From positions 25,110,001 to 25,174,000 of the forward strand of contig CM060734.1 in assembly GCA_030704615.1 (NCBI GenBank): DNA of 64,000 bases. The letters run 5' to 3'. Of the stretch, positions 8,116-41,300 are shown in pieces. This DNA comes from Takakia lepidozioides. Lineage: Eukaryota > Plantae > Bryophyta. Below the pieces are notes generated by a model. The model was not told the origin of the DNA, did not search any database, and was given only the letters and a program-made list of their open reading frames with translations. How positions within the stretch are numbered: the stretch's first letter is position 1; the number at the start of each line of letters is the position of its first letter. The position numbers and the translations under genes were made by a program.

Positions 8116-8409
8116 TTGGCCGGCCACAATATTTTCGGCACAACCACCTATAAAAATAAACGCCCAAACCAAACTAGCATGGCGCACAGTCAAGCATGCA
8201 TGTGTGGGAGGAGGATCCAAACACAGGAAACTCAAACAACAACACACCTTAAATCAATCGATCTCTTTGCGGCTCCAATAAACCTGCAAGATGGCCAAGT
8301 CTCTATCCAAACTAGCTCTGCCTCCACTTACGGAAAAGCCTTGGCCTACAAGAATGATGGAAGACTATAGAGAAGGCAAGCTAAAGCAATATCTAACCCC
8401 AGAATGCTC

Positions 8410-10883: not shown

Positions 10884-13610
10884 ACGTATTGATACAACAA
10901 TCGCTCTTCCTCACAACCCTCACAACGCTTGTAAAACGCAAAGTTCTCACCTCATTTTGCTTACACTCTCAAGACACATGAGCAGAGAATGAAAATCGAA
11001 AAACGATGACAACTCAATGACAATAGCGGCCCCACTCCTATCCATTGAACAGGATGGCGTAAACCTAACAGCTGTCAATATCTGATACGATCACAGTTCC
11101 TAATTAATGCTACTAACTGTCTCTCATAACTGTCCTTTTCCGCCGGCTGAAACAAACGGCTCAACCTAACTTTCCATGATGACACTGTACTATTACCACT
11201 TCAAGAATGACCCCCCCCCCTCCCCCTCCCCGCCCGAAATAACCTAGATTCTGCCCACAGAATCGCTAGGTATAAATTAATTTGAGGCGATCGCCATTAA
11301 TATAAGTCGTCAATGGATCTCCATTAATTGTAGCTAATTGTATTGAGTACAACAGGCTTTATCCCATTTCAATTAGTTTATGGACAAGAGGCGATTTTGC
11401 CTATTGAATTAGAAATCCTTTCTTTGCATATAGCTATCGAGGACCGCCTCCAGGCGATACTGCTTCTCTATCGGCTCGTCTATTGCAATTGGTCAAGTTG
11501 GATGAACTTCGTCGACAAGCGTTACAGACAATTGAAGCTACCTAGTTTAGGCGAAAGGACTATTATGATAGTCGTCTTAAGTCCAAAACATTTAAGGCCC
11601 AATAGTTGGTGTTGCTCCATGACAGTCGATTCCAAAAATATCCAGGAAAATTGAAAATGTGATGGCTTGGTCCCTATCGCGTAGTGGAGGTTTTCCCCAA
11701 TGGCAGGCCCACAATGCTGAAAGTAATTTTGTATCTCAATCAGTACCAGAACCTGAAATGGTCTTCGTCAAAATTCCACATAAAAGCCCATTAGTCTTAT
11801 GAGTCTGCCTATTAGCACGGGGATGATAGGGTGTAGTCTTACGGTGTTTAATCACATACTTAGTAGTTAATTGCTCAATGGTAGAGTTCAAGAAATGGGT
11901 ACCACGATCGCTCACAAGTTCTTGAGGACACCCAAAGCGGGAAATAATGTTCTCATATAAAAATTGGGCCACTACGTTGATCAGTACGAGTGGCCATCGC
12001 CTTAGCCCACTTAGTGACATACTCTGTTGCAACATGAATGTAACGTTTTTGACCATTGCGAGAAGCAGGAGCAATAGGGCCCACAAAATCAATCCCCCAC
12101 TTCTCAAAAGGAGCCTGCGCCAATATAGGGACCAATGGCATCGAACTGGATCGAACCGGGTTGCCCAATCGCTGACATGCATCGCAACGACGAACGTAGG
12201 CAAATGAATCCTTAAACAAGGTTGGCCACCAATAGCCCGATAGTAAAACCTTCCGTCCCGTTGCATCGCCTACAAAATGGCCACCGCATGCATCGGCATG
12301 ACATCCCTCGAGTATCATGGGAATCTCGGCTTCAAGAATGCATCGTCGCAATACTCCATCTTTCCCAAGTTTATATAATGTTTCACCAATAATCGTGTAA
12401 GGAGCAGTCTTCTCCACCAATTGACACTTTTGTTTATCAATATATCCCTCAGGAAATTGCTGCAATGAAGGATAATTAAAAACAAGGGCATATTCACCCG
12501 TCATCACATCAATCACAAAGAGAGCGGCATCAGGAAAAGAATCGTCAATCGGCTTTATCCCCATCTCTTTCGATAATCGGCTTTAATGATCAGCATTAGC
12601 ATGCTTGCGCCCAGGGCGTACCATGATTTTAAAAGTAAATTCCTGCAATAGAATAACCCATCGAGCCACCCTTCCGCTCGATTGAGGTTCATTAATGAGA
12701 TACTTTAATGCGTCATGATCAACATGAAAAACAAAGGGATAGCCCAATAAATAATGGCGATACTTTTGAACAAAATAAATCATGCCCAATCCTTATTGTT
12801 CAGTGGTAGTATAATTAATTTCTGCAGCAGCCAATTGTCGACTAGCAAAATAAATTGGATGATCAAAGGACTTTTCATCCTTTTGGCTTAAAACACTACC
12901 AATTGCATAAATTGAAGCATCTACATAAACTTGAAATTCTTTCCTCCAATCGGGTGAAATCAAGATGGGTGCCTTTATCAATCATCCCTTCAGCTCGTTA
13001 AAGAAGTATTGACATTCTCTCGTCCACTACGGTTCAACATCGTGTTTTAACAATTGCGTCAAGGGCAAAGCAATCTCAGCATATCGGTGAATAAAACGAC
13101 GATGGTATCCCACATGACCCAAAAAAACCCGTATCTCTGTCACAGTAGTGGGAGTATGTAATTGAACAATGATTTCCACCTTGGTAGGATCAGTCGATAT
13201 TCCTCGGATTGACAGGATATGGCCCAACAGCTTGCCCTTAGTGACCAAGAATTGACATTTCCCCGCATTTGAGGAGATTCCATAAGCCTAGCATTTTTGG
13301 AAACACAACTCCAACATCTCAGCATGAGTGGCTTTATCACTGTAAACACATAAATTGTCCAGAAAATCTCTATGAACAATCGCAAATAATCTTGAAATGT
13401 TGCAGTCATCACCCATTGAAAAGTAGCAGGGTCGTTACATAACCCAAATGGCATGATCTTATAGGCATACATGCCCCAATCGGAGGTTAAAGTAGTCTTA
13501 GCACGATCCTCCTCTGCAATTGTTGTTTGATTGTAACCTGAAAATCCACCGAGGAATGAATAGCACTCATGGCCAGCAACTGCATCCAGGATAGTATCGG
13601 TAAAATTTGG
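8410..13610 (-). mobile_element. Degenerate non-chromovirus Ty3/gypsy remnant: RT-RNaseH-integrase followed by a same-strand accessory ORF
   Basis: RT (AGHECYSFL.GFSGYNQ, MPFGLCN), RNaseH (VYVDAS, YTTTE, HVDHDAL) and integrase (HADACGGH, C.AC, WGIDFVGP, SDRGTHF, YHPRAN). Many stops and frameshifts; no LTR pair found. Confidence 0.9.
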
Positions 13611-13944
13611 TCGTCTGGACAATTTCTCCTGTTGTTTACGATACATCTTCAGTGCTAGGACCTACTTTTCAAAGATCTGCGCCGTTGTTTCCGTTGCTGG
13701 GGCGTTTGTGGAGGGCATGGCTGTGACTTCCTGCTTTTGTTTTGTCCGAGCTTCAAGGGCTTGGTTCTTGTTCTGGGCATAATCTTCCTCTGCCCTTGTT
13801 AGCACCCTTTCTCCCTTGCTGTTTGGGTGAATGCAGGAATGATTGGACCAAAATGCACGTTACCGGCACAATTTTAGATTACTGCAATTGATGGTGTCAT
13901 CAAATTTTTTTTAATTAACCAGCAAATATTACACTAGGACGTAT

Positions 13945-14280
13945 CAGAGGGTACATTGAACACACTGGCCAAGTTTGAAAGCGAACGAAAATCATTTGGA
14001 TGGGCAACCATCCGTTGGCCCATTGAACGAATTTCGATTGATCTCATATTACTCTGGGGCCTCTTACATGGCACATTGAACATAGTGGCCAAGTCTCAAA
14101 GCGAACCAAAATCATTTTGATGGCCAACCATCCGTTGAGCCATCGAATGAATTTTCGATTGATCTGATATTAGTCCGGGACCTGTGAGAGGGTGTCTGGA
14201 ACGTGCTGGCAAAGTTTGGAAGCTAACAAAAATGATTTGGATGGGCAACCATCCGTTCACCCGTTGAATGTATTCTGTTG
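13945..14280. repeat. ~120-bp tandem repeats (3 units), probably subterminal region of a non-autonomous DNA transposon; target of the 14285 insertion
   Basis: Units begin near 13967, 14087 and 14207 (ggccaagtttgaaagcgaac...gatgggcaaccatccgtt). A related motif resumes after the insertion at ~26310 (gccaaatttgggagcgatcaaaattcatttgga). Confidence 0.7.
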
Positions 14281-14284
14281 GGGC

Positions 14285-14583
14285 TGTCAAGTTAAATAAG
14301 CACAGTGTGAAAACAGCTAGAATAAAACTAGTTATTTGTATTTAACACTTGGATTTAGGTCAAGTGTTAAATCAGGTGTCAAGTTTAGTTTGACACCTGG
14401 TCCGTCTTATCTTCACGAGAGCGGCAGTCGCGCAGCTCATCTCTCTCGAGTTGAGCCTGCGCGACCGAGCTCCTTCATCGCTTCAGATCTGAGTGTGCTT
14501 ATGATGAGAGTGTAGGTTGTTGTGGGGTGGAGTCCCCATAGCTTGGGGTGCCCCTGGCTCGACTATTATCTTAAAGAGTGATG
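14285..14583 (+). repeat. Terminal repeat A1 (299 bp)
   Basis: Near-identical to 25825-26122 (one 1-bp indel and two substitutions seen). Confidence 0.95.
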
Positions 14584-15331
14584 TTGTTGGATTCATGTTG
14601 TTTTCTTGTGTAAACAGTGTGTTTTTCTAGTTTTCTTATCACTCGAGAGAGATGATGCTACCTAGTTTTTAGTGCTAAGCTAGATACAATGTTTTTCTTA
14701 GCACTATTATAATATACATCTTGGGGCACATCTGGCCCTGCTGTTGCCATGGGCTGTGCGCGCAAATCTAGTTGTCGTCTCTGCTCGTGAGTTTTTAAAA
14801 AAAAAAACAAGAGGTGTGGAGGTTGGAGACTTTGATAGTTGGCCACAAGGTCTTGGTGATGGAGTCTTGCAGTGACCACTGAACTATCTGCCTGCGCGAT
14901 GGCGTGATGGGCCCATGGGAGGTGGCCAACATTAGCCATTTCTCTCATATCTGGGATAATGAGACACTGCTTTCTTCATCTGAAGCTACTCCTGCTCTCT
15001 CCCGGCGAAGGGCCCGCGCTGGCTGGGATTTGGTGACCAGCGATATTCCGCCAGCATGAGTGGGACTGGCTTCCATTCCATGCAATATTAGGTCTCTCCC
15101 GGCTTAAGTTAGTTCCATTTGCAGGGCAGCAAGTCTGCATTGTTTGCTGTCTCTCGCAATGGCCATTGCTGCAGGGTTGGAAGTTCAATGCACCAGTTAC
15201 CTTCGCCAATGTGAACGCATTTGACTTCCGGTCACAATGAAGGAGACGAACTTCTGAGGAATGCTGATGTCGCTGAGATTCTGCACCGGACCACTTTCCC
15301 TCGTTCAGTCAAGCTTTCGGGAACAGAGATC

Positions 15332-15523
15332 CCTGAGACATATCTGCACCGAATCGGTCGAAGCGGGCGGTTTGGTCGCAAAGGTGCTGCTTTCAATTTG
15401 TTGCTCACAGATCAAGATGAGCGAAACGTCACGAAGATTCAACGTCATTTTAACAAAGTGATTCCTGAGGTGGCATGGAATGATGATGTTGCAATAGAGG
15501 AAGTCTTGAGGGATGCAGGCCTT
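15332..15523 (+). pseudogene. Captured fragment: C-terminus of a DEAD-box RNA helicase (DBP5/DDX19, plant LOS4/RH38-like)
   Basis: [24 protein letters not shown] (motif VI HRIGRxGR) followed by KIQRHF...EEVLRDAGL. Motifs I-V absent. Confidence 0.85.
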
Positions 15524-16427
15524 GCAAGAGCCTCCCTACACAGGTCTGGTAAAACAAGGCTTTCATGTGGCAGATCTTGGAGAGGGTGAAGAGCAGACAC
15601 ACATGTGTTTGCTTCCATTCTTCTTGCAGACAAAGGTTCTCGAGTGGGCAAAAGAGGCTGCCAAAAAGTGGAAAGCAGCATTTCAGTAAGCGTTTTAATG
15701 TATCGGTGCACTCAACACAGTCATACTGGGTGACTGTCGCATTTCATACCACTCCATAAAGTCTTGATAGCTGGGAGTTTTCTATCCAAGACCACTTGAC
15801 GGCCCGTAAGGAGTGAGAGCAAATGGGCATGGAGTATTGAGCTGGAGCAGATCTCTTTGGATGAGTGTGCATCACAACGGTTCTTTTGCACACTCATGTT
15901 GCAGGTTAGATCCTAGAGCCTGGATTGTTGCCAAGAAGGTGGTCACAGGCTAAAAGGTGTAGAGAATACAGAGCCTTAGGACTGCCTGTGTGATGCACAG
16001 TTTATGTATGTTTATACTGTTTGAGAGCAGGGTCACAGCCATGGAGGTGAACTGGCAAGTACATGTGATAGAAAAGCTAAGTACATGAGAAGATTGAGAT
16101 AGGCCAACAGGCTTTCAAGGAAGACAGAATAAGCTCGGGATTGGTGGCACTTCCCTATATTGGTGGCAACATGAAATTGCGAGCACTGCGGGTGGCATTA
16201 GAAGGAATGCTGCACTGAGAGGGAGGTGAGCAGGCACATGAAAAGAGCGGGAGGCAAAGAAGATGGGGCCCATTGCAGAGCAAGGGAGCTCCCTGCTATG
16301 AGTCAGTTCTTGCCTCGTCCTGCTGCCGCTCACTGTTGCAAGCTCCATCTTCAGCCGCAGCGTGCAGGCCCAGTTCGAGGAAGAGGAGCAATAGCGCAAG
16401 AGCAGATCCGCCATCGCCAGAGCTCAG

Positions 16428-16520
16428 ATGCCCCCGCCATCGGAGAAGATTCACAGGCTAGTTGATGAAATCTCCAGCCTCACTCTACTTGAAGTTTCGG
16501 ATCTCACAACGCTGTTGAAC
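16428..16520 (+). pseudogene. Captured fragment: N-terminal dimerisation helix of an organellar ribosomal protein L7/L12
   Basis: Manual translation MPPPSEKIHRLVDEISSLTLLEVSDLTTLL matches the bL12 pattern KI..LVD.I..LTLLE..DL. Confidence 0.75.
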
Positions 16521-18279
16521 TCAAATGAAATGGAGGGGAACAGCAGGCACGTGGCCAGGGAACCTAGGAAACCATATAGAACTTAGGGAACCGGGAACCA
16601 GTTACCAGATATTTTGGGTGTAACTTTAAATTTTAAACTTGAAAACTTATTAAAAAAATAAAAAATAAAAAAAAAAAACCCTTTGATCTAATTTAAATGA
16701 TTTAGAGCCAAATTGGTCATATCTTTGTCAAATGGGCTCTGTTTGACTCAGTTTTTTTGAGGGGACAGCTGCAGAAAGGGGAAATCTACCTATCTAGACC
16801 TGGTTTTGTTTTTGGGACTCTGCTAAAAATCTATGGAATTTTTAGAGTGTGAGTGTGCATGAAAGATCCACAATTCTGTTTCTAGAACCTGTGCTGGTCT
16901 ATATGAGAGACAAATCTGTGGATGTACTCCTTGTATGGCTGGGGGAAATGAGGACGTAATTGAAGGGCAGGTCTCTTCTCTTAGCCTGTGCACACAAGGG
17001 GACAGGATTTATGTTTCCCAAGGAACTCAGACTGATTTGAGTGGAGAACAGTTGGACGAGTTGATTGCATACTGGGGTCAGGCATTAGCAGTAGACAACA
17101 AGACTGCTGTAGTTGGCGTTGAGGGCCTCAATATCGCCTTGGACAGTCAGAACTCTGTTGGAGCCAGCAGTTCTGCAGCTGTGTGAAATACCAAAGTGGG
17201 TGAAAGCTAGGCTTGGAACACAGCCAAGACAGCCCCGGGACCAAGGTGTTCAGCCACAAGGCCGTGGTGTACTGGAGCAGAGGAGCAGGAGCTACACAAG
17301 TTTGTGCAATCAGACAGCGTTGCAGCCGGACACGCTCTGCACAGGGCAACCACGAGCGGGGGTTCATTTGCAATGACATGTTTGTTGTGCGTGAAGGAGA
17401 TGCAGTCATTCGCAATGAGGACACCCGCAACCGTCTCAAAGCTTTCGAGTTGAGAGACTATCAGACCCTACCTTTGTTTTCTTTAGTGTTCAGTGAGCGG
17501 GAGATAGGGGAGTATTGCTTTGTCTCTACCTGGCAGAAAGAGGAGGAGGGTTGGTTAGAGCGAGCTACTGTAGCTTGGGACAAGGTTAGTGGCAGGTTTC
17601 TGGACATAGATATACCTCCTACACCTTACCATCATGCAGAGCGAGGCACTTTGAGAGAAGTCTGGCAGTTGATAGCATAGATCAGGATTAGATCTTGCTT
17701 GGTCGGGCTTCTATTCTTCCCCTCCATCTCTGTACTATTTTCATTACCTTGTACTTGTAGTTGCCAAAGCCTCTCTTGGTGGAGGCCAGTCAGTCCGGGG
17801 TTTTGGGCTGGGCTATTCTGCAGGATCAGCATTGCAGCTGGATTTTGGTGGGGGGTGTTGATGTTTTGATTTCTTGTGTTTGGATCCCCCCCAACACCTG
17901 CATGCTTGACTGTGCGCCATGTTGGTTTTGTGTGGGCGCTTGCTTTCATAGGGATTAGGCCGGATTTGATCACCGGTCAATCCTAGAGTATGCTGTCGGT
18001 GGTGAGGCTGGAGTGATGACCAGCAAGACCACCAGTGTTTCTTCTATGGTGAGGCTGGGTTGATGACCAGCCAACCATAGGAGTTCTTGCGGTGGATGCA
18101 GGTGCAGGTGCCCTGAGCCATTGGGATATGACCCTTAAACTGCAACAGGTGCCCACCCGTGTCACTATTAGATACTAGAGCCTTATAGTGTCACGTGGAG
18201 GAGGTGCACATTGTGAGTGTCATTACGGAGTTACCCAAGGGTTTTGAGGGGAGTACGGCTACAGGCAGTAACAGTGAGT

Positions 18280-20273
18280 GGGTTCACAAGACGAGGTATT
18301 CGGTTCAGACCACCTTCACCGCCACCCTCAATTACTGTAGAGTCAGACACAGACTCGGAGGCTTCATCAACAGGTGTGCACTTTCATTCGCCATTGTTGT
18401 GGGACGACATGGGAGATGTATGGAGCTACCAAGGGGCCTCGTAGGTACTCTGGAGCTGTGGGCACAATCGAGTTGGATGACTTATCCAGGAGTTCGACAG
18501 CTGGTGTGATTTGCAGCAGATGCGCAATCCACAGCTATTCACCCCATTCATGGCGTGGAAGGGACTGTTCCAGCATTTGGAAGGCCCGCCTATGGACGAT
18601 TACCACGAGTTCAGGCGAGGACATGAAGCAGAGATTGAGGAGTGGAGGATGTATTGGTCACCTGACTACGTCTCCATTACTCGAGGCACGACGCGACCAG
18701 TAGCTGCATCAGTACCAATAGCTCCCACTGCCAGCACTAGTAGTGGAGCAAGTAGTGCTGGTACTTCTGCAGGTGGTACCAGTTCAAAAGGTGCTACTAC
18801 TCCTCCTGCCACGACTACAACACATGTGCTAGATTCAACCCGGTGGTGGAGTTCTTCCAGGAGTTGCGGAGGAACTACCAAGGTGTACGGACAGAGAAGC
18901 TGCGAAGTTTGCAAGACTTCCAGCGCAAACCCAGTGAGAGCCTGCGAGAGGCGTACACTCGTATGAGGCGCTTGATAAGTGTGACCCAAGGGGTTACTGA
19001 AGCTCAGGCAATCCAGTTTTGGTATGGAATTCTGGACAAGGAGCTCAGAGAAGGGTGCGAGATGCAACCCTGTTACAAGCAGCCCAACCCACATTAGCAG
19101 ATGTGTTTCTGCTGGCTGAGCGGATTGAGCTCAACATGGTGGAGGAGCGAGTTGTTACAATTGGATTGGCAAGGACATGCCTGCACGGGCACAGCTGTCA
19201 GCCCACAGGCACAAGGGACTGCCCAACAGCGTGGTCAGGGGGGCAAGGTTGCCCAGCCCAAGTTCCATGGAGCTTACAGGGGACCTCAGGTGCAGAGGCC
19301 CGTGGCATCTTTTGCAGGCCAACAGCAACCAGGGGTGATATGTTGGACATGTGGAGGACCCCATGTCAAGAGAGATTGCCCAGAGAGTGGCAAAAGGCCG
19401 GCACAAGCACAGCCTGCACAGTTGCAGTGTGGGCATTGTGGCAAGTATGGGCATGGAGATGCCCAGTGTTATGACTTGCATCCTGAGTTGCGCCCAGGCC
19501 AGTTCCAAGGGAACAATGGTGGCCGGGGGCGAGGTGGACCAGCCCAAAGAGGACGAGGTGGTCGGGCACGAGGTGCAGGCCAAGGGCAAGCTCCACATGG
19601 CCAAGGACGCGGAGGTCAGGGTGTTGACCAAGGCATGGCCAATCGGCTTCAGCAGCTAGAGCAGAGGCTCGCTGCCATGGCTATAGCTCAGGGTACGGCT
19701 CCCAGGCGGGATGGTCCACCTCCTGCTCCTGAGGGAGGAGATATGGGAGGCATGGGATTCATGTGCGGAGCAGCACTACCACTAGAGCAGGTGGAGTCTG
19801 CTGCAGCCGTGACTCGAGGAGCAGCACGAGTTCCTGAGCCACGAGGTGCAGAGGTGGAATTGGATCCACAACGTGGGGAGGCAAGCCGTCAGGCAAGGCT
19901 GCCTCAGTCATTCACCTTGGCGGAGACAGTGTCAACGCCATCCATGGCACCTAGTTCTCGCCCGACTGTTACCGAGGCGGAGGTTACTATGCCATTGGGG
20001 AGAGCTACACGTGCAGCACTGACACCTGCTGCCAAGGCTAGTGCGGCCGGTGTGTTATTGGGGGCAGCCACCTCTGTGTGTCAGGCAACAATGATTGCGA
20101 CGCCGGGGGTGAGACCAGCTGCAGTGTTCAGACTAGCAGCAACACTCTGTGAGAGTGGGGAGGTCACTTCATCTTCTGCGGAGTTAGTGGAAGGTGTAGT
20201 GGCAGAGGGATCCTCGGATTTGAGGGTCAAGACTGCCACGGCTGCGCCTGGCAAGCTGCAGCTGCCAGGTTGA
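18280..20273 (+). pseudogene. gag: gag of the DNMT element (frameshifted); two zinc knuckles and RGG-rich segment
   Basis: FQRKPSESLREAYTRM capsid-like motif; CWTCGGPHVKRDC and CGHCGKYGHGDAQC. Confidence 0.85.
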
Positions 20274-20700
20274 CGGAGCTGCCAGCTAGGCCAGCCTTTG
20301 AGCGCGCCATGGTGACACCTGGAGTTGTCTTGTTAGACAACCAGGGAGGCATTTTCACTTTGAGTGGACCGGCAGGCAAGAAGTACCGGCCACTGCGGGT
20401 CTTGTTGGACTCAGGAGCTCAGCCACTGATGTTGGGCAGAGCTGCTATTGCAGGTTTGGGCCTCATGGAGGCGGATATGGAGCCTTGTCCTTTCCAGATA
20501 CAGACATCTCTGGGAGGATCAGAGCAGGCTCGGGGCATGACACGGCATCAGTTGGCCATTAGACTGCAGCCGGATCATCCTATCGATGGCTCAGTGATGC
20601 GAGCCAAGGCCATTGTGACAGACGCGGTCTCTTACGATGTCCTCGTTGGTGGGGCAGTGTTATACCCCATGGGCTTCACCCTGGATTTTGGGAGGAGTCA
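20270..20700 (+). pseudogene. Retropepsin-type aspartic protease domain
   Basis: VLLDSGAQ active-site motif and YDVLVGGAVL. Confidence 0.85.
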
Positions 20701-21115
20701 GCATCCTACAGGCCTGGATGGCAGTCAGGGATGGTCGCCGTGCACAGCTCCCTGTGACATTCATTGGGGGTATTGCGCTGCCCAGCGGGGCAAGATGCCA
20801 ACACTAGCCGCCTTTACAGCTGCAGTTAGTTGGCCTGGAGAGTTGCTGGAAGGCAATGCCCATGCAGAGGATGTGCCACCTCCAGCAGAGAGCAGGATGA
20901 CATGCATGGTATGGCGGAGTTGCCTGCCATGGTTGCTCACACTCCATTGTGGGGTACGAGCAAGGATTTGCAGCAGGTTGCTGATCGACGGGTGCAACAA
21001 GCCTTGGGTAGAGCTTTTGTACCGTCAGGAGAGGAGGAGAGTGGGTATTGCACCAGGACCACCTCAGTTGTCACCATTGGATACCACACCTATTGTGTGG
21101 CAGCCGGATGAAGGC

Positions 21116-22060
21116 ATTTGCCTTCTGGACTTGTTTGGCGGGATCAGCACCGGATTGGCTGCTGTGCTACAGGCAGGTGTACGAGTTCGACGTTACCTGT
21201 ATGTGGAGGGATGAGACTGCACGACGCGTCTCACTGCGCCATGTTGCTCAGTTGGTACAGCAGTACCCTGACTTGTTGCCAGTGTCTGCAGTTCGTGGAT
21301 ACCAACAAGCCTTGCCAGCAGACATTTCTTGCTGGGGGCGCAGGATTTGGAGCAGGTTGGCTCCATTGATCTGGTAGTGGCAGGTTGGCCCTGCCAAGGG
21401 CATTCATCAGCCGGGCATGGCAATGGATTGCGAGACTCGAGGACGGGTCTGTTTTGGGAGATGGTGCGGATTTTGCGCCACTTGCAGCTTCATCAAGCTG
21501 TATCTCCAGCATACATCTTGGAGAATGTACCACTGATGGGTGATTCTCGGGCCAGGGTGATGGCCAGTGTGCATCAAGTCCGGTCGTGGCTTGGGTCAGC
21601 AGTGTTGCTGGATGCAGCTGCAGTGGGGTCACGGGCTCATCGTCCACGGCTATGGTGGACTAACTTGATGCCACCCGCACTGCTCAAGCGTGCATTTGAT
21701 GGGGTGCAGCGGCCAGCACACCTCACCGTGGATGGCATTTTGGACACAGGGGGCAGTCTCAACGTGTGAGACACGATGACCGTTCGCCTTTGGCAGTGGT
21801 CAACAGGGTGGGTCAACCACGAGCAGCATTACCTACACTGCTCAGCTTCCCAGGATCCCATGCTTTTCGGGATGGTGGACCTGGCCTCCTGTGGGATGCT
21901 CAGTTGCAGCAGTTAGTGGAGCCTAATGCCGACGAGCGAGAGCGGGCTATGGGGTTTTCCACTGGGACCACGGCGGTGCCTTCTCTTTCTGAGGCATCAC
22001 GTCGTCAGGTGTTGGGGCAAGCAATGGATCTCAATTGCTTGACCTGGATTATCAGCTTGG
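21116..22060 (+). pseudogene. C5 cytosine DNA methyltransferase domain (DNMT3-like) inside pol, split by three 1-bp frameshifts
   Basis: Motifs in canonical order: I LDLFGGISTG (21125), II YLYVE, III ADI, IV DLVVAGWPCQ (catalytic PC, ~21390), VI ILENV (~21515), VIII AHRPRLWWTNL (~21635), IX ERERAMGF..GTT, X RRQVLGQAM (~22000). Confidence 0.92.
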
Positions 22061-22498
22061 CTATGGCTGAGCAACGTAGAGTGCGGAGTGCACTTCCCTT
22101 GATGGTCTCTCTGCCTACCGAGACGGTACAGGCAGCGAGTGGGGGCGAGCCGGTGAGGACCACGGGTGTAGACATCCATGGCACATGTGGGAGGTGCTCG
22201 AGGTTCAGAGGGAGTTGGCAGCCAAGGCAGCTGTGATGGATGAGGTTGGGGATTCTTCTCGGGTTGAGGAGGTTCTCAATGATGAGATGATGGGGCAGGA
22301 TGAGGCCTTGTCATTGACTGAGCAGGAAGGGAGTACTGCTCAAGAGGTTGCAGCATAGCAACCACGGGACGCGTCCTACCTCTAAGCCACTGGACTTAAG
22401 GTTGCAGTTACGGAGGACAATTGGGAGCCTGACATTGGACCCATTGTCACCGGAGGAGAGAGACGACGTATACGGCGGTTCCTGAGGGCTTACAGGAA

Positions 22499-23840
22499 TT
22501 GCTTTGCCTTCAGTTTGAAGGACTTGGGAGCACTGAGGGTCAAGAGATCCGTATTGAGTTGGCCACTGACACGCCAATCTTTCGGAGACCCTATAGATAC
22601 AGTGACATGGAGAGGTCTTTGATTCAGATGAGGACTCAAGATCTCTGGGAGGCAGGTTTGGTGGAGCTCTCTGGTGGAGAGTATGCTTCAGCCACAGTGA
22701 TGCCAGCTAAGAAGGATGTCTATGGCAATTGGACGGAGAGACGTATGTGCGGTGATTACCGGCCTGTAAATCGTCAGACCAAGTCCGATAGGTATGCCAT
22801 GCCGACACCAGAGGAGATCTTTGATGCCATTGGGCATTCCAAGGTCTTTAGCACGTTGGATTTACGATCCGGATATCACCAGTTGCCGATCAAGGAGGCG
22901 GATAAGCAAAAGACGGCATTCTGGGGGATCAATGAGCACGGGAAGGATTGCCTATACCAGTGGCGGTTCTTACCATTTGGGCTTAAAAACGCTCCCGCTG
23001 AGTTTCAAAGAGTCATGGACAGGATTCTAGCAGGGGTGGAGTTTGCTCGGTGCTACATAGATGACATCATCATCTTTAGTGCTACGGTGGAGGAGCATGA
23101 GAGACACCTTCAGGGGGTATTTGAGCGCTTGAGGACGCACGGATTGAAGTTACATCCGGGCAAGTGCAAGTTTTTTCCACAACCAGATTGAGTATCTGGG
23201 TCACATGATATATCCTGGAGGATTGGGGGTACAGCAGACTAAGGTAGAGTCCATTGCACAGGTTCCACGCCCCACGGATGTGAGCCGAGTTCGAGCTTTC
23301 ATGGGGTTAGCAAACTATTACAGACGGTTTGTTAAGGGATTTAGTGCCATTGCAAAGGCTCTAACCAAGCTGACCAAGGTGGACCAGGAGTGGCAGTGGG
23401 AAGATGAGCAAGAACAAGCTTTTCAAGAGCTCAAGGCGAGGTTGACCTCGGCGCCCATTGAGACGACCTATCAGGGGGCGTCTTTTCAGCTGCATACAGA
23501 TTGGAGCATGCTGGGGCTTGGAGCGGTGCTCACACAGGTGGATGATGAGGGAAGAGAGTTCGTAGTGGCTTATGCTAGCCGCTCGAACAATGCTGCAGAG
23601 TCTAAGTATAGCTCATATGAGGGAGAATGCTTAGCTGCAGTGTGGGCCGTGGCACACTTCAGGTGCTATCTATACGGCAATCTCTTCACCCTTGTCACGG
23701 ATCACCAACCACTCAAGTGGTTGATGGAGTCAGACAAGCTTACGGGGAAGCTTGCACGGTGGGCACTCATCCTTCAAGAGTATGACTTTCAGGTGGTGCA
23801 TCGACCGGGTTTGGTCAATCGCAATGCAGATGGGTTGAGT
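22499..23840 (+). pseudogene. pol: Reverse transcriptase and RNase H (Ty3/gypsy)
   Basis: RMCGDYRPVN, LDLRSGYHQ, LPFGLKNAP, YIDD (23054-23065), LHTDWS, YEGECLA, TDHQPL, NADGLSR. Confidence 0.95.
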
Positions 23841-24199: not shown

Positions 24200-25270
24200 A
24201 TTGTGCCTCACCAACACAGCGGGCACGGTTAGTGCGGCATGCCCATGAGGAGTTGGGGCATTTTGGGGTGCGACGCACTCATAGTCTACTGCAGGGGCAG
24301 TATTGGTGGCGTGGTATGCACACAGAGGTGCAACAATTTGTGGCTAGGTGCATGGTGTGTGACAGGGTGCGTGCTTCATTCAACGCCCCTACTCCACAAT
24401 TGCACCCTCTTCCGATCATGGGATTGGGCTACAGGTGGAGTCTTGACTTCGCAGGGCCGTTGCCACTGACCATGCGCCACAACAAGTACGTGTTGGTGAT
24501 GGTGGAGCACTTCTCCAAGTGGATTGAATTGGTTCCATTGCCTGATAAGGCTAGTGAGGGAGCTGCGTATGCATTCTTGGATTGTGTGCTTAGCCGATTC
24601 GGTGCTCCAGCTGAGGTACTCACGGACCAAGGGAGAGAGTTCTTGGGGGAGTTTCAGGCTTTGTGTGACAAGGCCTTGATAGACCACCGCACCACTTCTC
24701 GGGATCATCCTGAGGCCGATGGCTTGGCAGAGAGAGTTGTTCAGACAGTAAAGAGGGGTTTGCGCAAGTATGGCTTGCAGAAGGGACACCTAGGAGATTG
24801 GGACCTTCAGTTACCCTGGTTAGCCATGGGCTACAGGTTCAGCAAGCAAGCATCACTTGCCTCCTTCTCACCATACTTTCTCTCTTTGGCCGAGAGCCGG
24901 ATTTGCCTACATCCATTCGCAGAGAAGCTGCTACAGTTCTTAACCTTGACAATCCGGACGTGTGGGCACGTGCATGTGAAGCAGCGTGCAGAGTTGTTTC
25001 AAGAGAGTCGATGCCATGGCTTTCGATAACCTTGCATTGCACAACACCGTGATACGTTGAGGTATGCTACCATACGTGGTGGGGGCTATCGTCCTGGGGT
25101 TCGAGATTCAACCCTGGTGACTATGTCTATCTGCAGCAGACTACTCCTACGACCCTGATGAACTGCAGGACGTGTTATTTTGAGGGTTCGAGAGGTCTTG
25201 CCCTCAGGCGTCTTGGTCTTGGACGGTCAGGATGGCATAACTTGGAAGGGACCATGTGCGTAATTGTGCG
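24200..25270 (+). pseudogene. DDE integrase
   Basis: H-x4-H...CMVC zinc motif, SLDFAGP, TDQGREF, DGLAER. Confidence 0.93.
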
Positions 25271-25338
25271 CCATGTCACCTCCGAATGTCGATGGCAGGA
25301 TTGACCCAAACCTGGCAGTGGTATCTGTAGGTTTGAGG

Positions 25339-25473
25339 TGCATGTTGTGTGGGTCTGCTAAAAGGGGCAGCCACCATGCTGTGGTGTGATCGATGCTCTA
25401 GAGGTTGGCCTATGGGATGCTGACTCCACCTCTTGAGATGGTTCCAGATGGGGATTGGTTATGTCCACATTGC
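25339..25473 (+). pseudogene. PHD finger at the C-terminus of pol
   Basis: Manual translation across two 1-bp shifts: CMLCGS...MLWCDRCSRGWPMGC/LTPPLEMVPDGDWLCPHC. This is the C4HC3 pattern; the His position reads Pro here. Confidence 0.85.
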
Positions 25474-25737
25474 ATGGATAGTGGGAGTGGATACAACATG
25501 GAAGGCTAACAAGAAACGCAAGGCCCAACTACTAGGAGACCTTGAACACACGAGATCCTAGCTCAAGTTCACAGATTGCAAGACGGCGACTAACGATGGG
25601 GCTACTTTGTACCCGCCTCTTGGTCTAATAGATTTGAGTACAATAGGACAGTGATAGAGGACTTAGTACGGCTTGTGGCTATTACATCTTGTAGCTATCT
25701 GGAGGTAAGGGACCTATCCACCAGCTAAGGGGGCGAT

Positions 25738-25821
25738 TGTGGCAGACTACTTTATTGTGCATATATGTGTGGTGTGGTTTGGACAGCGATGTAGTTGTGT
25801 AGCGATATGTATGCGCACGAC
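25738..25821 (+). repeat. Terminal repeat B1, preceded by a PPT-like AAGGGGGCGA (25727-25736)
   Basis: tggcagactac...gcacgac identical to 26121-26202 except one substitution. Confidence 0.93.
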
Positions 25822-25824
25822 CGC

Positions 25825-26122
25825 TGTCAAGTTAAATAAGCACAGTGTGAAAACAGCTAGAATAAACTAGTTATTTGTATTTAACACTTGGATTTAGGTC
25901 AAGTGTTAAATCAGGTGTCAAGTTTAGTTTGACACCTGGTCCGTCTTATCTTCACGAGAGCGGCAGTCGCGCAGCTCATCTCTCTCGAGTTGAGCCTGCG
26001 CGACCGAGCTCCTTCATCGCTTCAGATCTTAGTGTGCTTATGATGAGAGTGTAGGCTGTTGTGGGGTGGAGTCCCCATAGCTTGGGGTGCCCCTGGCTCG
26101 ACTATTATCTTAAAGAGTGATG
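25825..26122 (+). repeat. Terminal repeat A2
   Basis: Copy of 14285-14583. Confidence 0.95.
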
Positions 26123-26203
26123 GCAGACTACTTTATTGTGCATATATGTGTGGTGTGGTTTGGACAGCGATGTAGTTGTGTAGCGATATGTATGTGCACG
26201 ACA
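26121..26203 (+). repeat. Terminal repeat B2 (element 3' end, ...GACA)
   Basis: Copy of B1, followed by TSD GGGC. Confidence 0.93.
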
Positions 26204-26767
26204 GGGCTGCTATTGCTTTGGGACCTGTTGGACTGTGTTTCGCGTGCTCACGATTTGTTTTTCATTCCGTTTTTGAATGGGGCGTGTAATGTAGCCATAT
26301 GCAATGTGCGTGCCAAATTTGGGAGCGATCAAAATTCATTTGGACCCAAAACCACAGTTTTTTCCCTGTTTTGCACTCCAAACTTGATTTGTGTTCTACT
26401 TCATGCACTCTTCATAGAGAGTTCTACAATAGTGAGTGAAGAAAACATTTTTTTGGGGGGCATTTTTTATTGGTCCAAATTTTGGCGGGGGAGTAGCCGT
26501 GGGATGCTGGAAGCCGCAGAACAAAATTGAGCCAAAAACAAAATCGATACGTGCCAGAAACCCCCACTGAAAGGCAGTGCAAACCTATTTATTGGTTTAA
26601 AATAAATTTAAATTCAATTAAATTGTGGAATGGCTTGAGGGGGGAGCGCGTCGATGGGGAGGCAAATGATTATTTTCTGTTGTGTCCCCGCACATGTGTC
26701 ACACACATGTTCAAGCACATGCGGGCAAAAGAGGGGCTTCAACCACAACCGTTCAATGGGTGCAATA

Positions 26768-30048: not shown

Positions 30049-30987
30049 TGTCGAACGGCTTTTACTCACCCATCCCTTCGCTATCCGAGGTGGAAACTCC
30101 AAGATAGAAGAGTTGGATATCTTTAAGCACTCAGCCCGCTCAGTACAATCAGTCATGACCTGCAGCTAGTGAATCATGGTTGTGCTTCCCATTTGTATTC
30201 ATTCTTGCCTTCATGTTATCAATTTACCTTATTTGATACTGAAGCATCAGATTGCTTCAGTATCTTCTTAGTTCCAGTTAATCATGCATTCATTTCACAG
30301 CTTCACTCATGTCTCTCTACACAGTGTGCTTGTATCGAATAAGTATCATATTACAATTTATCAGGTACTAGGCCAATGTTAAGGTGACTCTAATCCGCCC
30401 TACAGTATCACTACAGCTCTGCATGAAATAACCTCCATCAAGTCATCATCTCCTCTTCTATGTAATCATCATCCCTGTGCTCCAAGATCGTGCCCTCCGT
30501 CTGACCTTCTCTCCTGATGTCTAAGAAGTGATTCCCAAGAAGTCCTCCCCAAAAAGTCCCCGCTCTTGGCTTTATCTACCTACATGGCTGTTCTAACCGC
30601 CTTCCTCACTAACCGTCACCCCTGAAGTAACATATTCCCTCTGCAGATGTTGTTCCCACACAGTCGTTCCCTGTCCATGTTAACCGTTCCCTCTGTACTG
30701 TGACAACTGTGCAAAATTGCGTTGGGCTGTGTGAAGCTATGACGGGCTGTGACTGGCTGTGCGAAGCTGTGGCGGCTGTGACTGGCTGTGTCGGCTATGA
30801 CTGACTGTGACGGGCTGTGTTGGCTGTGACTGGCTGTGACGGGCTGTGACGGGCTGTGTAATCCCCCCCCCCCCCTAAAGCCTGCTGCTGTCACCCCTAA
30901 GGCTCCTGTTGGTCTCAGTCTGTGTAAAAATTAAGGGTACCCCACAGAACCTGTAAAAGCGTCTAAGTCCCAAGCAGCCCTCTAACA
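30049..30987 (-). repeat. 3' LTR, containing a 10-bp GCTGT-based minisatellite (~30720-30860)
   Basis: tgtcgaacggct...ccctctaaca, adjacent to the PPT. Confidence 0.92.
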
Positions 30988-35375: not shown

Positions 35376-38300
35376 CTAGTCATATATGCTCGGCTTAGCG
35401 ACAACTGCTCCATACTCCGTTGGTATCACTGGCGCAGCCCGTGACTGCTTTTGCGTTTCAACATGCAAATCGTGCTGCAATGGTTTGTCATGGATACCAC
35501 TGTACCCCTTCAACTTATTGGCATTGACTCTTCCCAACATCTCCTTGTTAATGGTTTGTAACATGGCTGTGTTGTTATCATACATCTTCTGTATGACATA
35601 AGGTCCCTTCCATGGTGATTTAAGCTTAGAAGCTTTAATCTTCCCCTTCTTCTGCAACCAGAGAACCAAATCTCCCGTCTAAAAAATCCTAATTTTGCCT
35701 TCATCAAACTGTTCCTTCCTCTTCATCTGAATTCTGGTCATGTTATCAGCTGCATCAGCACGTACTTCTTCCACATGGTATAATTCATGTTTCCTGACCT
35801 TAATTGAATCTTCCAATTCCATTCTTTTTCCCCATTCAGTTCTCATGGTAGGTAACAAGAATTCCACTGGAAGTAAAGCTTCCATACCATAAACTAATTG
35901 GAATGGTGTATACTTAGTGGTGACTTTATATGAAGTCTTGTATGACCACAAAGCTGTCAGCAGCTTTGTATCCCAATCCGTTCTGTTTGCATTGACTATC
36001 TTAGCCAAGATAGTACATAGTATTTTGTTGGTAGCCTCTGCCTGCCCATTACCCTGTGGGTAATACGTTGTACTCTTCCTATGCACAATCATGAACTCTT
36101 TAGTCAATAGTTCAATGGTCTCATTAATGAAGTGACTTCCCTGGTCACTGATAAATTCCAAGGGACAGCCAAATCGTGTAAGTATGTTCTCATACAGGAA
36201 CCTTGCTGTGGACTTGGCTGTGTTGTCCCTCAGAGCTTTAGCTTCCACCCACTTCGTAGTATAATCAGTGGCTGTAATTATGTACTTGTTCTGTGTATTC
36301 TTGGCCGGTGGGTTAATTGGTCCAACAAAGTCTAGTCCCCATTTCTGAAATGGTTCAGTAGGCATCGTAGGATGCAAAGCCATCTTCCCAGATCTCTGCA
36401 AAGGTCCTAGCCTCTGACATTCATCACAACTCTGACAATACTTGTGTACATCTTTGAACAAAGTAGGCCACCAGTAACCTGCAAGTAGTATCTTCCTACT
36501 GGTAGTCTCTTCTCCAAAATGACCTCCAGCCACTCCTTTATGAACTTCCTCCAAAACTTTATTTACTTCATGGTGGTACAAACATCGTTTAAGTACTCCA
36601 TCAGGTCCTAGCTTATACATTCTGCCCTCTACCATAGTATAAGGTTAAGCCTTGATAGCGATTCTCTTCCTCTGCTCCTTACCATAACTAGGTGGGCACT
36701 GACCATGAGTAAGGTAGTATCTGATTGGCCACTGCCAATCTAACCATTCATCTGCACTTCCTTGCACCTCCATTGCAAATAAACTCGCATCAGGTAATTG
36801 GTCGTCTACTCCTGTGGCGGGCTCTCCTGTTGTTAGACGTGACAAATGATCTGCCACAAGATGCAAACGGCCAGGCTTGTAAACAACTTTGAACTCAAAC
36901 TCGTGCAAGATTATTAACCACCTTGCTATCCTTCCACTTATCAAAGGTTTGTTCACCACATATATCAGAGCTTGGTGATCCACATAAAACATAAACTTTC
37001 TTCCCTGCCTGAATTTCTTGACTGCATAAATCATTGCCAGTGCTTCTCTTTCAGTTGTGCTATAGTTCCTTTCAGCGCTGTTCATCAACATGCTAGCATA
37101 GTACACAGGTGAATCTATATTTCCTGTAACATTTTGGGCTAACACCGCTCCCAACGCTTCTCCTGAGGCATCACAGTGAACATGAAATACTACATGCCAG
37201 TGAGGGTTAATCAGCACAGTTGTTATTGACAATGTAAGTTCCTCAAAAGCCTGTTGACATTCAGCTGTCCATGCAAACACTGCATCTTTCTTCAGAAGCT
37301 TGCTCAATGGTGCTGCTATCTGTGCGTACCTTTTGACAAATCTTCTGTAATAACTGGTTTGTCCAAGGAATCTCCTTAGACTCTTAACATTTACTAGTGG
37401 TGGAGAGGCTTTAATGGCCTCCGTCTTCCTGGGATCCAGAAGAAGTCCCCTCTTACACACAATGTGTCCCAAAAGCACCCGTGAGTTCACACAGAAAGTA
37501 CACTTCTCTGGATTCAGGCCCAGACCTCTCATCCTGCATCTGGCCAAACATAACTCCAATTTATGCAAGTGCTCATTCTTAGAGCTGTACACACTGAAAT
37601 CATCCAAGAAACACCTGCATGAAATCATCCAGATACTCATGAAAATATTCACTTATCACTCTCTGAAAGGTTGCTGGTGCATTACAAAGTCCAAAAGGCA
37701 TGACTTTGTATGCATAAGCACCCCAGTCTGTGATGAAAGCTGTCTTTCCCTGGTCTTCTTCTGCCACTTGCACTTGATTATAACCATTGAAGCCATCCAT
37801 GAATGAGTACATCTCATGGCCTGCCACATTGTCCAATACCGATTCTGTGAATGGCAAAGGGAAATGATCTTTCTTCGTGCAAGCATTCAACTTCTTATAG
37901 TTCACACAAACTCTCAGTTTACCATTCTTCTTGGGAACTATCACAATGGGTGACAACCAAGTTGTATACTCTATCGGGTATATAAACTTAGCCTCAGCCA
38001 ACTTCTTGATCTCTTCTCCAACCTTCTGTGCATAGTTGGGATTCATTTGTACCTTGCCTATTTGATTGGTACTAACCCTGGTTCCAGTTCAATCTTATGC
38101 TGACAGATCTCAGGTGGTATCCCTTTTAGATCCTCGTAGCTCCAAGCAAATACATCTCTGTATTTGATGAACAAACTCTTAGCTTCCTCAAAGAATTCTG
38201 GCTCCAAATCAGCCCCTACCTTCACCATCCTCGGTTCCTCTTCAGTTCCCACATTCACTTCTCTCACGTGCTCATCAGCTGTGATTGTCCAACCAGTCAC

Positions 38301-41300
38301 CACTTCATCCTGTAAACTCACAGTGGCTGGTTCCTCTAGGATTTCCATTTCTCCTTCTCTTTCTTCATAGAATTGTGGTGGGTATCTGCTTGTTTCACCT
38401 TCAATTGGTGTTGTTGTCACTACACCACAACAGATACCCTTTAAACAACTTAGGCCTTCCAGCTGCATCTCTGCAACCTGCTCCCACTCTGGGTGTGCAG
38501 CGAACAGGGTAGCTTCCTGTTCCTCATCAAGTCCTCCCCTCCAGTCATACTCCGTGACCCCTCGAGGTCTTCTCTTAGCAGGTAATCTACTAGATTTCTT
38601 AGTGGTAATTTGTATCTTGTGCATCCCATCATGCACAGTTAGTAACTGGGAATTCCAGTCATGGAATACCCTGGCCTGTTTCAGCCACGGACGTCCCAAC
38701 AATAAGGAGTAAGCTTCCATGACTTCATCCATTTTCAACACAGTTACTGTGATCATAAAGATCATCTTTTGAATCTGTATCTTAACTCCTCTTATCAATC
38801 CCAGTGGCTGTACACTTCTTTGATCTACCATTGTAACTGTAAATGGGGCTGGCTTCATGTTACTTAGACCAAGCTTCTGCCTTAATTGGTCTGTCATGAT
38901 GTTCACTCCTGAGCCTCCATCAATGAGTACATCAGTTAGTTCTGTGCTTCCTATTCTCAATTGGATTATTGGCATGGAATCATCAAAGTCCATGACTGTT
39001 TCTCGCCCTTCTAGCTTCACATTATAACTGGTCACCTTGCTGTTCAGGTCTGTGTTCCCTGTCACATGGGCAATTCGATTGATTGCTTGATACAGCCTGT
39101 GTCTACAATAAGGTGCCACAGTCAATAGCTGTCCAATGGTAATCTCTGCTTTGGACTGACATATTACTTTAGCCAAAGTCCCTTCATTACTCTGCATGTC
39201 TGCAGCTTCTTTCTTCCCTTCATCCTCACTCACTTCCTCTTCTCTTCAGAATCAGAGGAATCTGCCATAGGAATATCAGTACTCTTCTGCATTTCCCTTA
39301 TGGTATCTGCCACTTCCTTGTGCAGTTCCTTCTCATCTCTCCAAGCCTCATCATCTTCAGGCACATCACTGCCATCTTCATTATCATCATCTTCCTCATC
39401 TACTAGAGGTATTAGTTTGGCTTTGCTTCTCGTTACTATCATTGTACTTACTTCTGGTACAACACATGGCCTAACCATGTGAGCCGCCACCACTGGCCCC
39501 TCATTCACAGGAGCTCTCATCTCATTCAGGTGTCTAATCCAGAATGGACTGGCTGCCTTGCGATGTCCTGCCTGATTACAATAGTAACATAGTTCTTTCC
39601 CATTAGGTCCTCGCCCTTGGTCTGTTCTGGAATTGTTTCTGTAATCCTGATTCCCTGGCTCGTAATTCCCTCTTGGATTACCCTGATAGTTGCCTCTGGA
39701 ATTTCCTTGGTAATTCCCTCTTGAATTACCTCTCCCTTCCATGCCATTGTTATAACCACCAGGCCTACCATAGTGGTCCTGATCATTGTTTCTTCTTGGC
39801 TGGGGCTGCACTTGATGCACCCTTACTTGCCTAGGTTCTCTAGCTGTTGTCCTTCTGTTGTAGTAACAATTCTCAGTAGAATGGTTATCCATCTTACAGA
39901 TAGTACAATGTTTCTCTTTCATGTGGCATTCAGTGGTGGTATGGCCTTCATTCTGGCACTTTGCACACCAAACACCCTTCCTCCAATGTGTTGCAGCCTC
40001 TGTGGCATACTTCTTCAAGATTTCTTCTAATCTTTTCTCATAGTTATCCCTCTTCAACTTTTCCTTTCTCTTACTCTTCCTTTTCAGCTCTTGCTCTTCT
40101 TCCTCATCTGACTCATCCTTAGAGTCCTCATCATCCCTTTTCTCCCTCCCGAGCATTCCCAATTGCTCAATTCTGTTCGCTGTTTCAAATGCCTCATCCA
40201 CTGTATTATGGGGTAACATATCCACTATCTTTTGCAACTCTGGTCTTAGTCCACTCACAAACCAAGTCTTATGTAAACCTGGTGCTGGTACAGCAGCCAG
40301 CTTTTTCATCATCAATTCCATTTTTTCCATATACTCCTCAACAGTTTCATGCTTCTTTTGCTTTAACTGTTGTAAACTTCCATACACTTTATCCTCAGTT
40401 TTACTTGTCCTGAACCTATTTCGGAATGTTGTATTCAAGCCATTCCAGGTTAGGAAATGATTATTAGGGAATCTTGCATACCATTCACTTGCTTTCTTGA
40501 TAAGTGAACAAAGAAATAGTCTCATCTTGGCATCATCGCCATTCTCATTGTTCACAATATACATGTGCTCAAATTGGCTAATGTGTACATCAGGATCCCC
40601 TTTTCCTGAATATATTGGTAAAGGTGGTTTTGCCCGTGTTGGTTGTAACGCCATCTGTGGCCCTACCTTCTGCCCACTGACAGATGCTGGCCCCCTTGCT
40701 GGTGCTGGTCCTTGAGGACCTGTTGTAGTTGTGGTGGATCTTCCACCCAGTGGTGGCCCCTGAGCACTCCCTGCTACCGGCCCCACGATATTCACAGTAT
40801 CCCAGCTCCAGTTGCATTACTTCCCACACTCCCTGTCCCCCCAGAGCCAAATCCAGGCTGCCCGCCTGATCCCTCTGAGCCGACACCTTCGTTGGCCTAT
40901 GGTCCAAGTGCTCGTCCTGGTTGTAGTCTCAACCTCAGCTGTTGGGTCTACTTCTTTATACTCTTCCTCTTCCAATTCCTCCCCTCTGTTTTCATCCTCC
41001 AAGTTCTGCCATTGGGTTTCTTCTTCACTCATGTAACTCAACTGCAATGGTGTTGGAGAGTCTGAACTCTCCGTTGGCTCTGCCACATCCTCTCCTCCTT
41101 CTTCACCTTCCCTTTCAGAAACTGGAGTTCTTGCTTTTGGTGTTCCATGCCAACTCTTATCAAAGATTTCTGTCAAATCTTTTATCCAGGGATGTACCTC
41201 AGATCTTTCACCTCGTGGTTGATCTTCTTCCCGTACCAATTCCCTTAATCTTTCTTCCAAAGAAAAAGAAGGAGTGGCTAGAGTCTAGTTCTTCCGGTAT

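Follow-up and report, generated by a model that had tools for sequence, protein, structure and literature searches.

Architecture of the element

The 64,000-nucleotide stretch of Takakia lepidozioides contig CM060734.1 analysed here, hereafter the window, carries on its plus strand an 11.9-kb Ty3/Gypsy retrotransposon that extends from a TG at 14285 to a CA at 26203 and lies between the two copies of a 4-bp target-site duplication (14281-14284 and 26204-26207), a duplication of the same length being found at the related locus L003. The coding domains occur in the order Gag-like region, protease (PR), C5 cytosine methyltransferase (DNMT), reverse transcriptase (RT), RNase H (RH), integrase (IN) and PHD finger. 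The Gag-like region (18416-20216), delineated by tblastn of the Marchantia protein P0137 and others and by translation, is frameshifted and contains zinc-knuckle-like Cys motifs. It is followed by an aspartic protease (20387-20668), detected with its own profile and by Pfam in the intact relative L018, and by a frameshifted DNMT3-like enzyme (21101-22068) with the catalytic Pro-Cys, the ENV and motif VIII. A conserved in-frame amber stop with CAA CCA behind it (22356-22364), that is, a leaky-stop context of the CAR-YYA kind, closes this Gag-PR-DNMT frame. Downstream lie the reverse transcriptase (22706-23176), the RNase H (23481-23783) and a DDE integrase (24211-25280, the 3' limit being approximate) composed of an H2C2 domain, a core reaching to about 24882, a long helix and a beta-barrel C-terminal domain; the PHD finger (25339-25473) terminates the integrase.

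The ends of the element are not ordinary LTRs and show split repeats of the DIRS-like kind, with repeat A1 (14285-14583, starting with TG) at the left and, at the right, the succession of B1 (25740-25822), A2 (25825-26120) and B2 (26121-26203, finishing in CA). A purine-rich tract before B1 (25727-25736), likely the polypurine tract, occupies the same place in L003, L030 and L064. The same three loci display the A1...B1-A2-B2 order, and B1/B2 pairs occur in 24 of the 56 loci with at least 700 nt past the finger. Because of this recurrence in L003, L030 and L064, we rejected the possibility that the 300-bp A repeats form a small element of their own, with the 82-bp B repeats as a long target duplication. 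The internal B1/A2 junction (25819-25829) consists of the right end of the element, 2 nt and its left end; the pattern CA-NN-T(G/A)TCA comes up as the first match in 14 of 20 loci inspected and can be seen in a further 3, the junction being a perfect 12-nt palindrome in L003 and recurring in L017, L023, L080 and others. Judged from its letters, it would seem to resemble an end-to-end circle junction, which raises the prospect that elements with a DDE integrase may pass through circular cDNA, as DIRS-like elements do. DIRS, PAT and Ngaro elements are defined by a tyrosine recombinase instead of a DDE integrase, and what we find here is an rve integrase together with TG...CA ends and a 4-bp target duplication.

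Between A1 and the Gag-like region lies a 5' region with host-gene fragments (14584-18400), about 1.4-3 kb longer than its counterparts in L003, L030 and L064. It includes an N-terminal piece of ribosomal protein L7/L12 (16395-16541, PF16320, E 7e-6) and a helicase-like piece at about 15250-15540 that has no Pfam match but resembles a DEAD-box helicase C-terminus.

The named proteins that come nearest among the matches listed belong to two liverworts, Riccia sorocarpa (85%) and Calypogeia fissa (86%), and further relatives are found in Marchantia, Klebsormidium, Closterium, Tetrabaena and Haematococcus. The element is a member of the Gypsy-DNMT3 kind with the layout of KnitGypsy-Dnmt3. Indeed, the window element and its family combine the PR-RT-RH-IN order with a DDE integrase, a non-rearranged DNMT3-like enzyme with its catalytic residues and DIRS-like repeats.

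Condition and surroundings of the window copy

A1 and A2 are set apart by 2 substitutions and 1 gap over 297 nt, B1 and B2 by 1 mismatch over 82 nt, and because both pairs are nearly identical we regard the insertion as young. In this copy, 21 frame switches were called between the protease and the PHD finger. Comparison of one 1205-nt contig with the window yielded 24 substitutions and 22 gaps, and most of the listed indels alter the length of a base run, which suggests that the frame breaks probably stem from long-read assembly error; the compared contigs are collapsed, however, and the copy may instead be truly damaged. Other repeats of the window align gap-free over 500-1000 nt. Summed contig depth, which is not a copy number, suggests a high-copy family.

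The window is dense in transposons. A second, partial member of the family on the minus strand (6572-8248) comprises a Gag region with 72% DNA identity to 17852-19487 and includes a 46-nt triple tandem repeat (7973-8110). Other Gypsy-type elements or fragments, with gag, protease, RT, RNase H and integrase and one with SH3_Tf2-1, lie at 35679-41284 (minus), 57925-59517 (plus) and 11953-13661 (minus). A 120-nt tandem repeat (13912-14273) adjoins the insertion site on its left, and 10-nt tandem arrays (30718-30867 and 42692-42949) are located inside a long repeat pair (30049-30987 and 42062-43051).

A PHD finger at the end of the integrase

The integrase of this Gypsy-DNMT3 retrotransposon ends in a PHD finger, encoded by the stretch 25339-25473. 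An earlier note on this DNA, made from the sequence alone, had proposed here a frameshifted C4HC3 finger in the integrase tail, and its limits proved exact, as the first Cys codon begins at 25339 and the last spans 25471-25473. The sequence of the window likewise shows the frameshifts within the finger, two breaks near 25360 and 25421 dividing it into three frame pieces. A profile built from 100 homologous fingers gives the window finger, with X placed at both breaks, 60 bits (E 6e-21 in a search of this one sequence). When the profile was run over all six frames of the 64-kb window, nothing other than the two frames of the finger itself (8e-6 and 5e-4) fell below E 0.2.

The C4HC3 pattern holds for the family and not for the window copy. 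The zinc-ligand columns of the 100 homologous fingers contain, in order, 100 Cys, 99 Cys, 100 Cys, 100 Cys, 100 His, 98 Cys, 98 Cys and 87 Cys plus 10 His, whereas the fifth-ligand codon of the window copy (25409-25411) reads Pro instead of His, leaving it with seven of the eight ligands. At position 25410, however, essentially all of the depth gives a His codon in all four runs compared (5796/5796, 415868/415969, 490/490 and 34/34), so that the His ligand, which the note had singled out for checking, is secure at the level of the family.

The finger of the intact relative L018 matches PF00628 (E 2.6e-10), as befits a canonical PHD, and shares a single frame with the integrase, a frame that is broken in the window copy. 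An in-frame PHD is carried by 100 of the best 120 of 253 integrase homologues, and it is present in 64 of the 65 loci with room for it. Its position is also remarkably constant, since it begins 130-159 residues past the integrase core in 86 of the 92 proteins with room, a spacing that points to one old capture. The L018 integrase as modelled by AF2 (65 sequences, pLDDT 82) starts with a zinc-binding NTD and continues with the catalytic core, a long helix, the beta-barrel C-terminal domain (305-355) and, past a short linker, the PHD, an order that bears out the location proposed for the finger. The best fold matches of this model are foamy-virus and Ty3 integrases (Z 20.6, rmsd 2.3, 187 aligned), in a search that barely tested its PHD part. 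The region between core and PHD has no sequence match in the PDB and is, according to the fold comparison, the integrase C-terminal barrel. No Chromo family was detected in 29 relatives or in L018.

Predicted specificity of the finger

Among the best 60 of 96 PDB matches of a homologue's finger are CHD4, PHF12, PHF21A, ATXR5, KDM5 PHD1, UHRF1, BAZ2 and AIRE, and none of the 60 is an ING, BPTF or TAF3 finger. The residue two positions before His, presumably the place of the cage Trp in H3K4me3 readers, is Gly in 96 of the 100 homologous fingers. The family is thus without the aromatic cage of the ING/BPTF/TAF3-type readers, and a conserved cage Trp is needed for reading H3K4me3 by a PHD finger (PMC3214078). 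The Trp directly before Cys3 in the window finger was ruled out as a cage residue, other copies differing at 25382-25383 and the column being L/F/I/V in 99 of the 100 homologues.

The contacts of the opposite class are present. The Asp after Cys3 is retained in 91 of the 100 fingers and the late Pro, Gly and Trp in 97, 77 and 84, with a spacing (19, 2, 2) identical to that of D328, P347, G349 and W351 of KDM5B, the residues that contact H3R2 and H3A1 (PMC4225485). The family consequently possesses the H3R2 Asp and the H3A1 Pro/Gly/Trp pocket of the KDM5 PHD1/UHRF1/BHC80/AIRE type. The absence of the cage combined with the preservation of these contacts argues against a K4me3 reader and for a finger that most likely binds the H3 N-terminus when it is free and unmodified.

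Its avoidance of K4me3 may be weak. An acidic residue reads unmethylated K4 in AIRE, BHC80 and KDM5B, while UHRF1 does without it (PMC3214078, PMC4225485). In the 100 homologous fingers such a residue before Cys1 is not conserved, no column exceeding 37% Asp, and at the spacing of KDM5B D308 the homologue P0010 has Asp and the window Val. The finger may for this reason ignore the K4 state, as that of UHRF1 largely does (PMC3214078).

The methyltransferase and its two positions

The methyltransferase section of the element (METHYLTRANSFERASE) has DNMT3A/B as best PDB matches (E 5e-6) and matches PF00145 (E 1e-13), so that the DNA-methylation writer announced by the earlier note appears genuine by sequence. 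All 60 aligned proteins retain its catalytic Cys, Glu-Asn and Arg. At least part of a DNMT was found in 40 of the best 120 of 253 integrase homologues, and it was present in 23 of the 24 judgeable proteins from the integrase query, a set biased towards presence. Among loci found by RNase H/integrase patterns, 25 of the 29 with room have it upstream of RT.

Two places for the DNMT are seen across the clade, PR-DNMT-RT and RH-DNMT-IN, and they form separate branches of the DNMT tree (FastTree, with local supports, several deep nodes being weak). The complete RT-RH-DNMT-IN-PHD layout is found in 18 of the best 120 of 253 proteins. P0040, P0107, P0103 and others have the DNMT between RNase H and integrase; in many proteins of this layout the catalytic motif reads Glu-Cys where Pro-Cys would be expected, and many are missed by Pfam. 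Either domain may also occur alone, P0071 having a PHD without DNMT and P0151 and P0152 a DNMT without PHD.

The finger lies about 1,100 codons from the DNMT and, in L018, in a different frame, and no ADD family was detected at E <= 0.05 in either L018 frame. The Marchantia polymorpha proteins P0137, P0141, P0145 and P0148, annotated as hypothetical, are Gag-PR-DNMT frames of the family, and counts of DNMT3-like genes in bryophytes may therefore include transposon copies.

A conserved stop between DNMT and RT

The intact L018 comprises a 1369-residue Gag-PR-DNMT frame, one amber stop and, in the same phase, a 1047-residue RT-RH-IN-PHD frame. The stop site is covered by 33 loci (the whole set of 80 loci probably goes back to a small number of host genomes, so that its members do not count as independent), 25 of which group with the window by integrase score while 8 form a second subfamily. 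On the window side, a stop followed by CAR-YY occurs in 19 of the 25 loci, in four sequence contexts counting that of the window; it was not found in the other 6, and in none of the 25 is a sense CAR codon present in the stop motif. As background, only 8 of 636 random premature stops of the same loci have such a context. We rejected chance deamination as the origin of the stop, since it recurs at one place with one context. In the second subfamily the stop is absent from all 8 loci, and the proteins P0018, P0019, P0113, P0147 and others are fused without it. Given its absence from the second subfamily, from 6 of the 25 window-side loci and from these fused proteins, production of the DNMT at the level of Gag is not a clade-wide need.

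The contexts are TAG CAA CCA in the window, TAG CAG TTA in L018 and TAA CAA TCA in the L042 group. In the largest context group (16 loci), 15 finish in CCC (CAA CCC, one base off YYA) followed by ATG, which makes re-initiation possible in these 15; no such ATG follows the stop in the window, in L018 or in the L042 group. CAR-YYA after UAG is the readthrough signal of TMV and is active in plant cells (PMC2754532), and the window element indeed has a stop with CAR-YYA in frame between two frames, as in leaky stops of this type (type I). No RNA fold common to the loci was found after the stop (z -1.8, -2.7, 0.8 and 0.05). Among the best 40 of 46 read-variant rows for 20900-22700 none falls at the stop, which does not directly show the state of the stop in the other copies of the host. 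Furthermore, of 42 new proteins that the DNMT search brought in, 22 terminate 75-169 residues past the DNMT, lengths that the query length filter favoured. From the conserved context, we infer that the stop would be read through at a low rate to give RT-RH-IN-PHD.

Discussion

We lean towards a reading in which the PHD finger, as a tether, directs integration to nucleosomes that lie at a distance from H3K4me3 promoters. The DNMT, encoded on the other side of the stop, would act separately and most likely on new cDNA. The steps that we infer would run as follows. The leaky stop would cause the DNMT to be made together with Gag, at the level of Gag, and the integrase-PHD to arise only from the readthrough minority. 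The protease would then free the domains, the finger staying on the integrase, where it could bind the free H3 N-terminus, tether the integrase to nucleosomes and bias insertion away from active promoters. The abundant DNMT would meanwhile methylate the new cDNA inside the particle, a role already proposed for such enzymes (PMC5890265 section 11). The net effect would be the arrival of methylated new copies in quiet chromatin, achieved by two independent devices and not by one ADD-like module, so that the outcome may look coupled even if finger and DNMT need not touch. Regarding insertion, intergenic copies of the Chlamydomonas element Gypsy-7a, which has a PHD in its Gag-Pol, exceed the chance expectation 2.6-fold (PMC9940879 section 13), a bias that may come from selection according to its authors. 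Regarding methylation, the isolated KnitGypsy DNMT gave none in yeast, a result that its authors call inconclusive (PMC5890265 section 10).

The earlier note had gone further and interpreted finger and DNMT as a reader-plus-writer pair coupled in the manner of the ADD domain of animal DNMT3. As one unit, the finger would dock on H3K4-unmethylated nucleosomes and bring or activate the DNMT, which would then methylate the chosen site. The pairing itself is largely borne out. Indeed, both domains are retained from chlorophytes to liverworts and are usually kept where there is room for them, the integrase-query proteins with their bias towards presence giving the same picture. Moreover, ADD domains recognize the same H3 tail state as PHD fingers of the unmodified-H3 class, to which the present finger would belong. 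The coupling, on the other hand, finds no support in the comparison, for L018 gave no ADD match, about 1,100 codons and, in the subfamily of the window, a conserved stop separate the two domains, the DNMT has two positions on separate branches of its tree, each domain has been lost alone, and a PHD is found in other Chlamydomonas transposons. We consequently judge the one-unit reading unlikely as a whole. It is most plausible for the RH-DNMT-IN-PHD layout, in which the DNMT directly precedes the integrase and an uncleaved DNMT-IN-PHD would be possible, and not for the layout of the window.

It appears quite unlikely that the finger does no more than hold on to nucleosomes in general or serve the integration complex as a structural component, which would raise efficiency or keep the complex on chromatin without choosing a chromatin state. 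Such a role would agree with the conservation of the H3A1 and H3R2 contacts without the K4-reading acid and with the finger of UHRF1, whose binding drops only 3-fold from unmodified H3 to H3K4me3 (PMC3214078); most of the close solved relatives are nevertheless described as preferring unmethylated K4, and the intergenic bias of a PHD-bearing Gypsy element (PMC9940879) likewise speaks for a choice of target. Finally, an action of the abundant DNMT in trans on host chromatin or resident copies, as self-restraint or manipulation of host silencing with no role in integration, could account for an output that would far exceed what few cDNA molecules need and has a parallel in the slowed transposition raised as an option in section 11 of PMC5890265, but it is very improbable in view of the ordinary, plant-like methylome of K. 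nitens (PMC5890265) and of the CpG o/e of the element (0.45-0.54), which is like the window average (0.50).

Returning to the reading with separate tethering and cDNA methylation, we tentatively propose a wider version of it, which may well be wrong in its full extent. A Gypsy clade spanning the green plants would practise a "silent landing", in which methyltransferase made at Gag stoichiometry fully methylates the cDNA before integration, and the rarer readthrough integrase-PHD docks on H3K4-unmethylated nucleosomes and may cut circular cDNA, this last step being suggested by the palindromic end-to-end junction within the split repeats. New copies would then already be marked on arrival, in chromatin that maintains the mark.

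PMC5890265 (section 11) leaves open why retrotransposons keep a cytosine methyltransferase of their own. The conserved leaky stop predicts many methyltransferase and few integrase-PHD molecules per particle, a ratio that would fit methylation of cDNA in the particle and would fit poorly with a one-to-one reader-writer, and it thereby offers a testable handle on this question. Relatives in Marchantia polymorpha, a tractable model, and L018, an intact natural copy, are at hand for this purpose.

Comparison with known systems

Gypsy elements with a DNMT3 and DIRS-like repeats have been described in K. nitens (de Mendoza et al. 2018, PMC5890265), and the name Gypsy-DNMT3 is used in a bioRxiv preprint (10.64898/2026.05.21.726589). 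KnitGypsy-Dnmt3 shares with the window element the Gypsy domain set, a DNMT3-like methyltransferase in the polyprotein region and the DIRS-like repeats (PMC5890265); K. nitens proteins appear among the integrase homologues at 53-56% identity, and P0030 has the order PR-DNMT-RT-RH-IN. The window element differs in that its closest named relatives are liverworts (Riccia, Calypogeia, Marchantia) and that, in its subfamily, the DNMT ends the Gag-PR-DNMT frame, which is closed by the conserved stop. The term PHD is absent from the main text and three text supplement files of PMC5890265 (KnitGypsy also scoring 0 in the supplements), of which the domain drawing in Fig. 4c may show one.

Taken by itself, the finger is an addition of a familiar, ordinary sort. 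PHD fingers are common additions to green-algal transposons (PMC9940879 section 13, PMC8557442) and are called widespread on transposons (PMC6673714, PMC8557442, 10.1101/2021.11.30.470311). In Chlamydomonas, Gypsy-7a_cRei and REM1 are Gypsy elements with a PHD proposed to limit harmful insertions (PMC9940879 section 13); no DNMT is listed there for Gypsy-7a, and the legend places its PHD before INT, so that the position may differ from that in the window family. The plant LTR survey PMC6317226 does not use the word methyltransferase in its main text. Among the full texts searched, which were largely without subscription papers, Repbase and theses, we found nothing on PHD plus DNMT3 as a rule of a clade, on bryophyte members, on two DNMT positions or on a leaky stop.

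In chromoviruses such as MAGGY, as in the window family, the integrase ends in a domain that reads histone tails and follows the beta-barrel, and targeting guided by their chromodomain has been stated (PMC6673714, 10.1101/2021.11.30.470311). In the window family, the reader is a PHD finger predicted to recognize the unmodified tail and not methyl-K9, and split repeats take the place of ordinary LTRs. If confirmed, a PHD-guided integrase would represent a second histone-reading strategy of targeting beside the chromodomain. In the EpiLTRs of Cymbomonas and Euglena a single LTR element encodes both a reader of histones and a cytosine methyltransferase, and the reader-plus-writer theme is thus already in print (10.64898/2026.05.21.726589); there it involves a chromodomain, a DNMT4-related enzyme and an adenine methylase, here a PHD and a DNMT3-like enzyme. 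Animal DNMT3A/B share with the family a DNMT3-like catalytic domain and a zinc finger of the class reading unmodified H3, their ADD being an adjacent regulatory domain, whereas the canonical C4HC3 finger of the family belongs to the integrase, a stop and a long distance separating it from the enzyme. As the PHD and DNMT add-ons were already known from related elements, the novelty of the window element resides mainly in the leaky stop that separates writer from reader.
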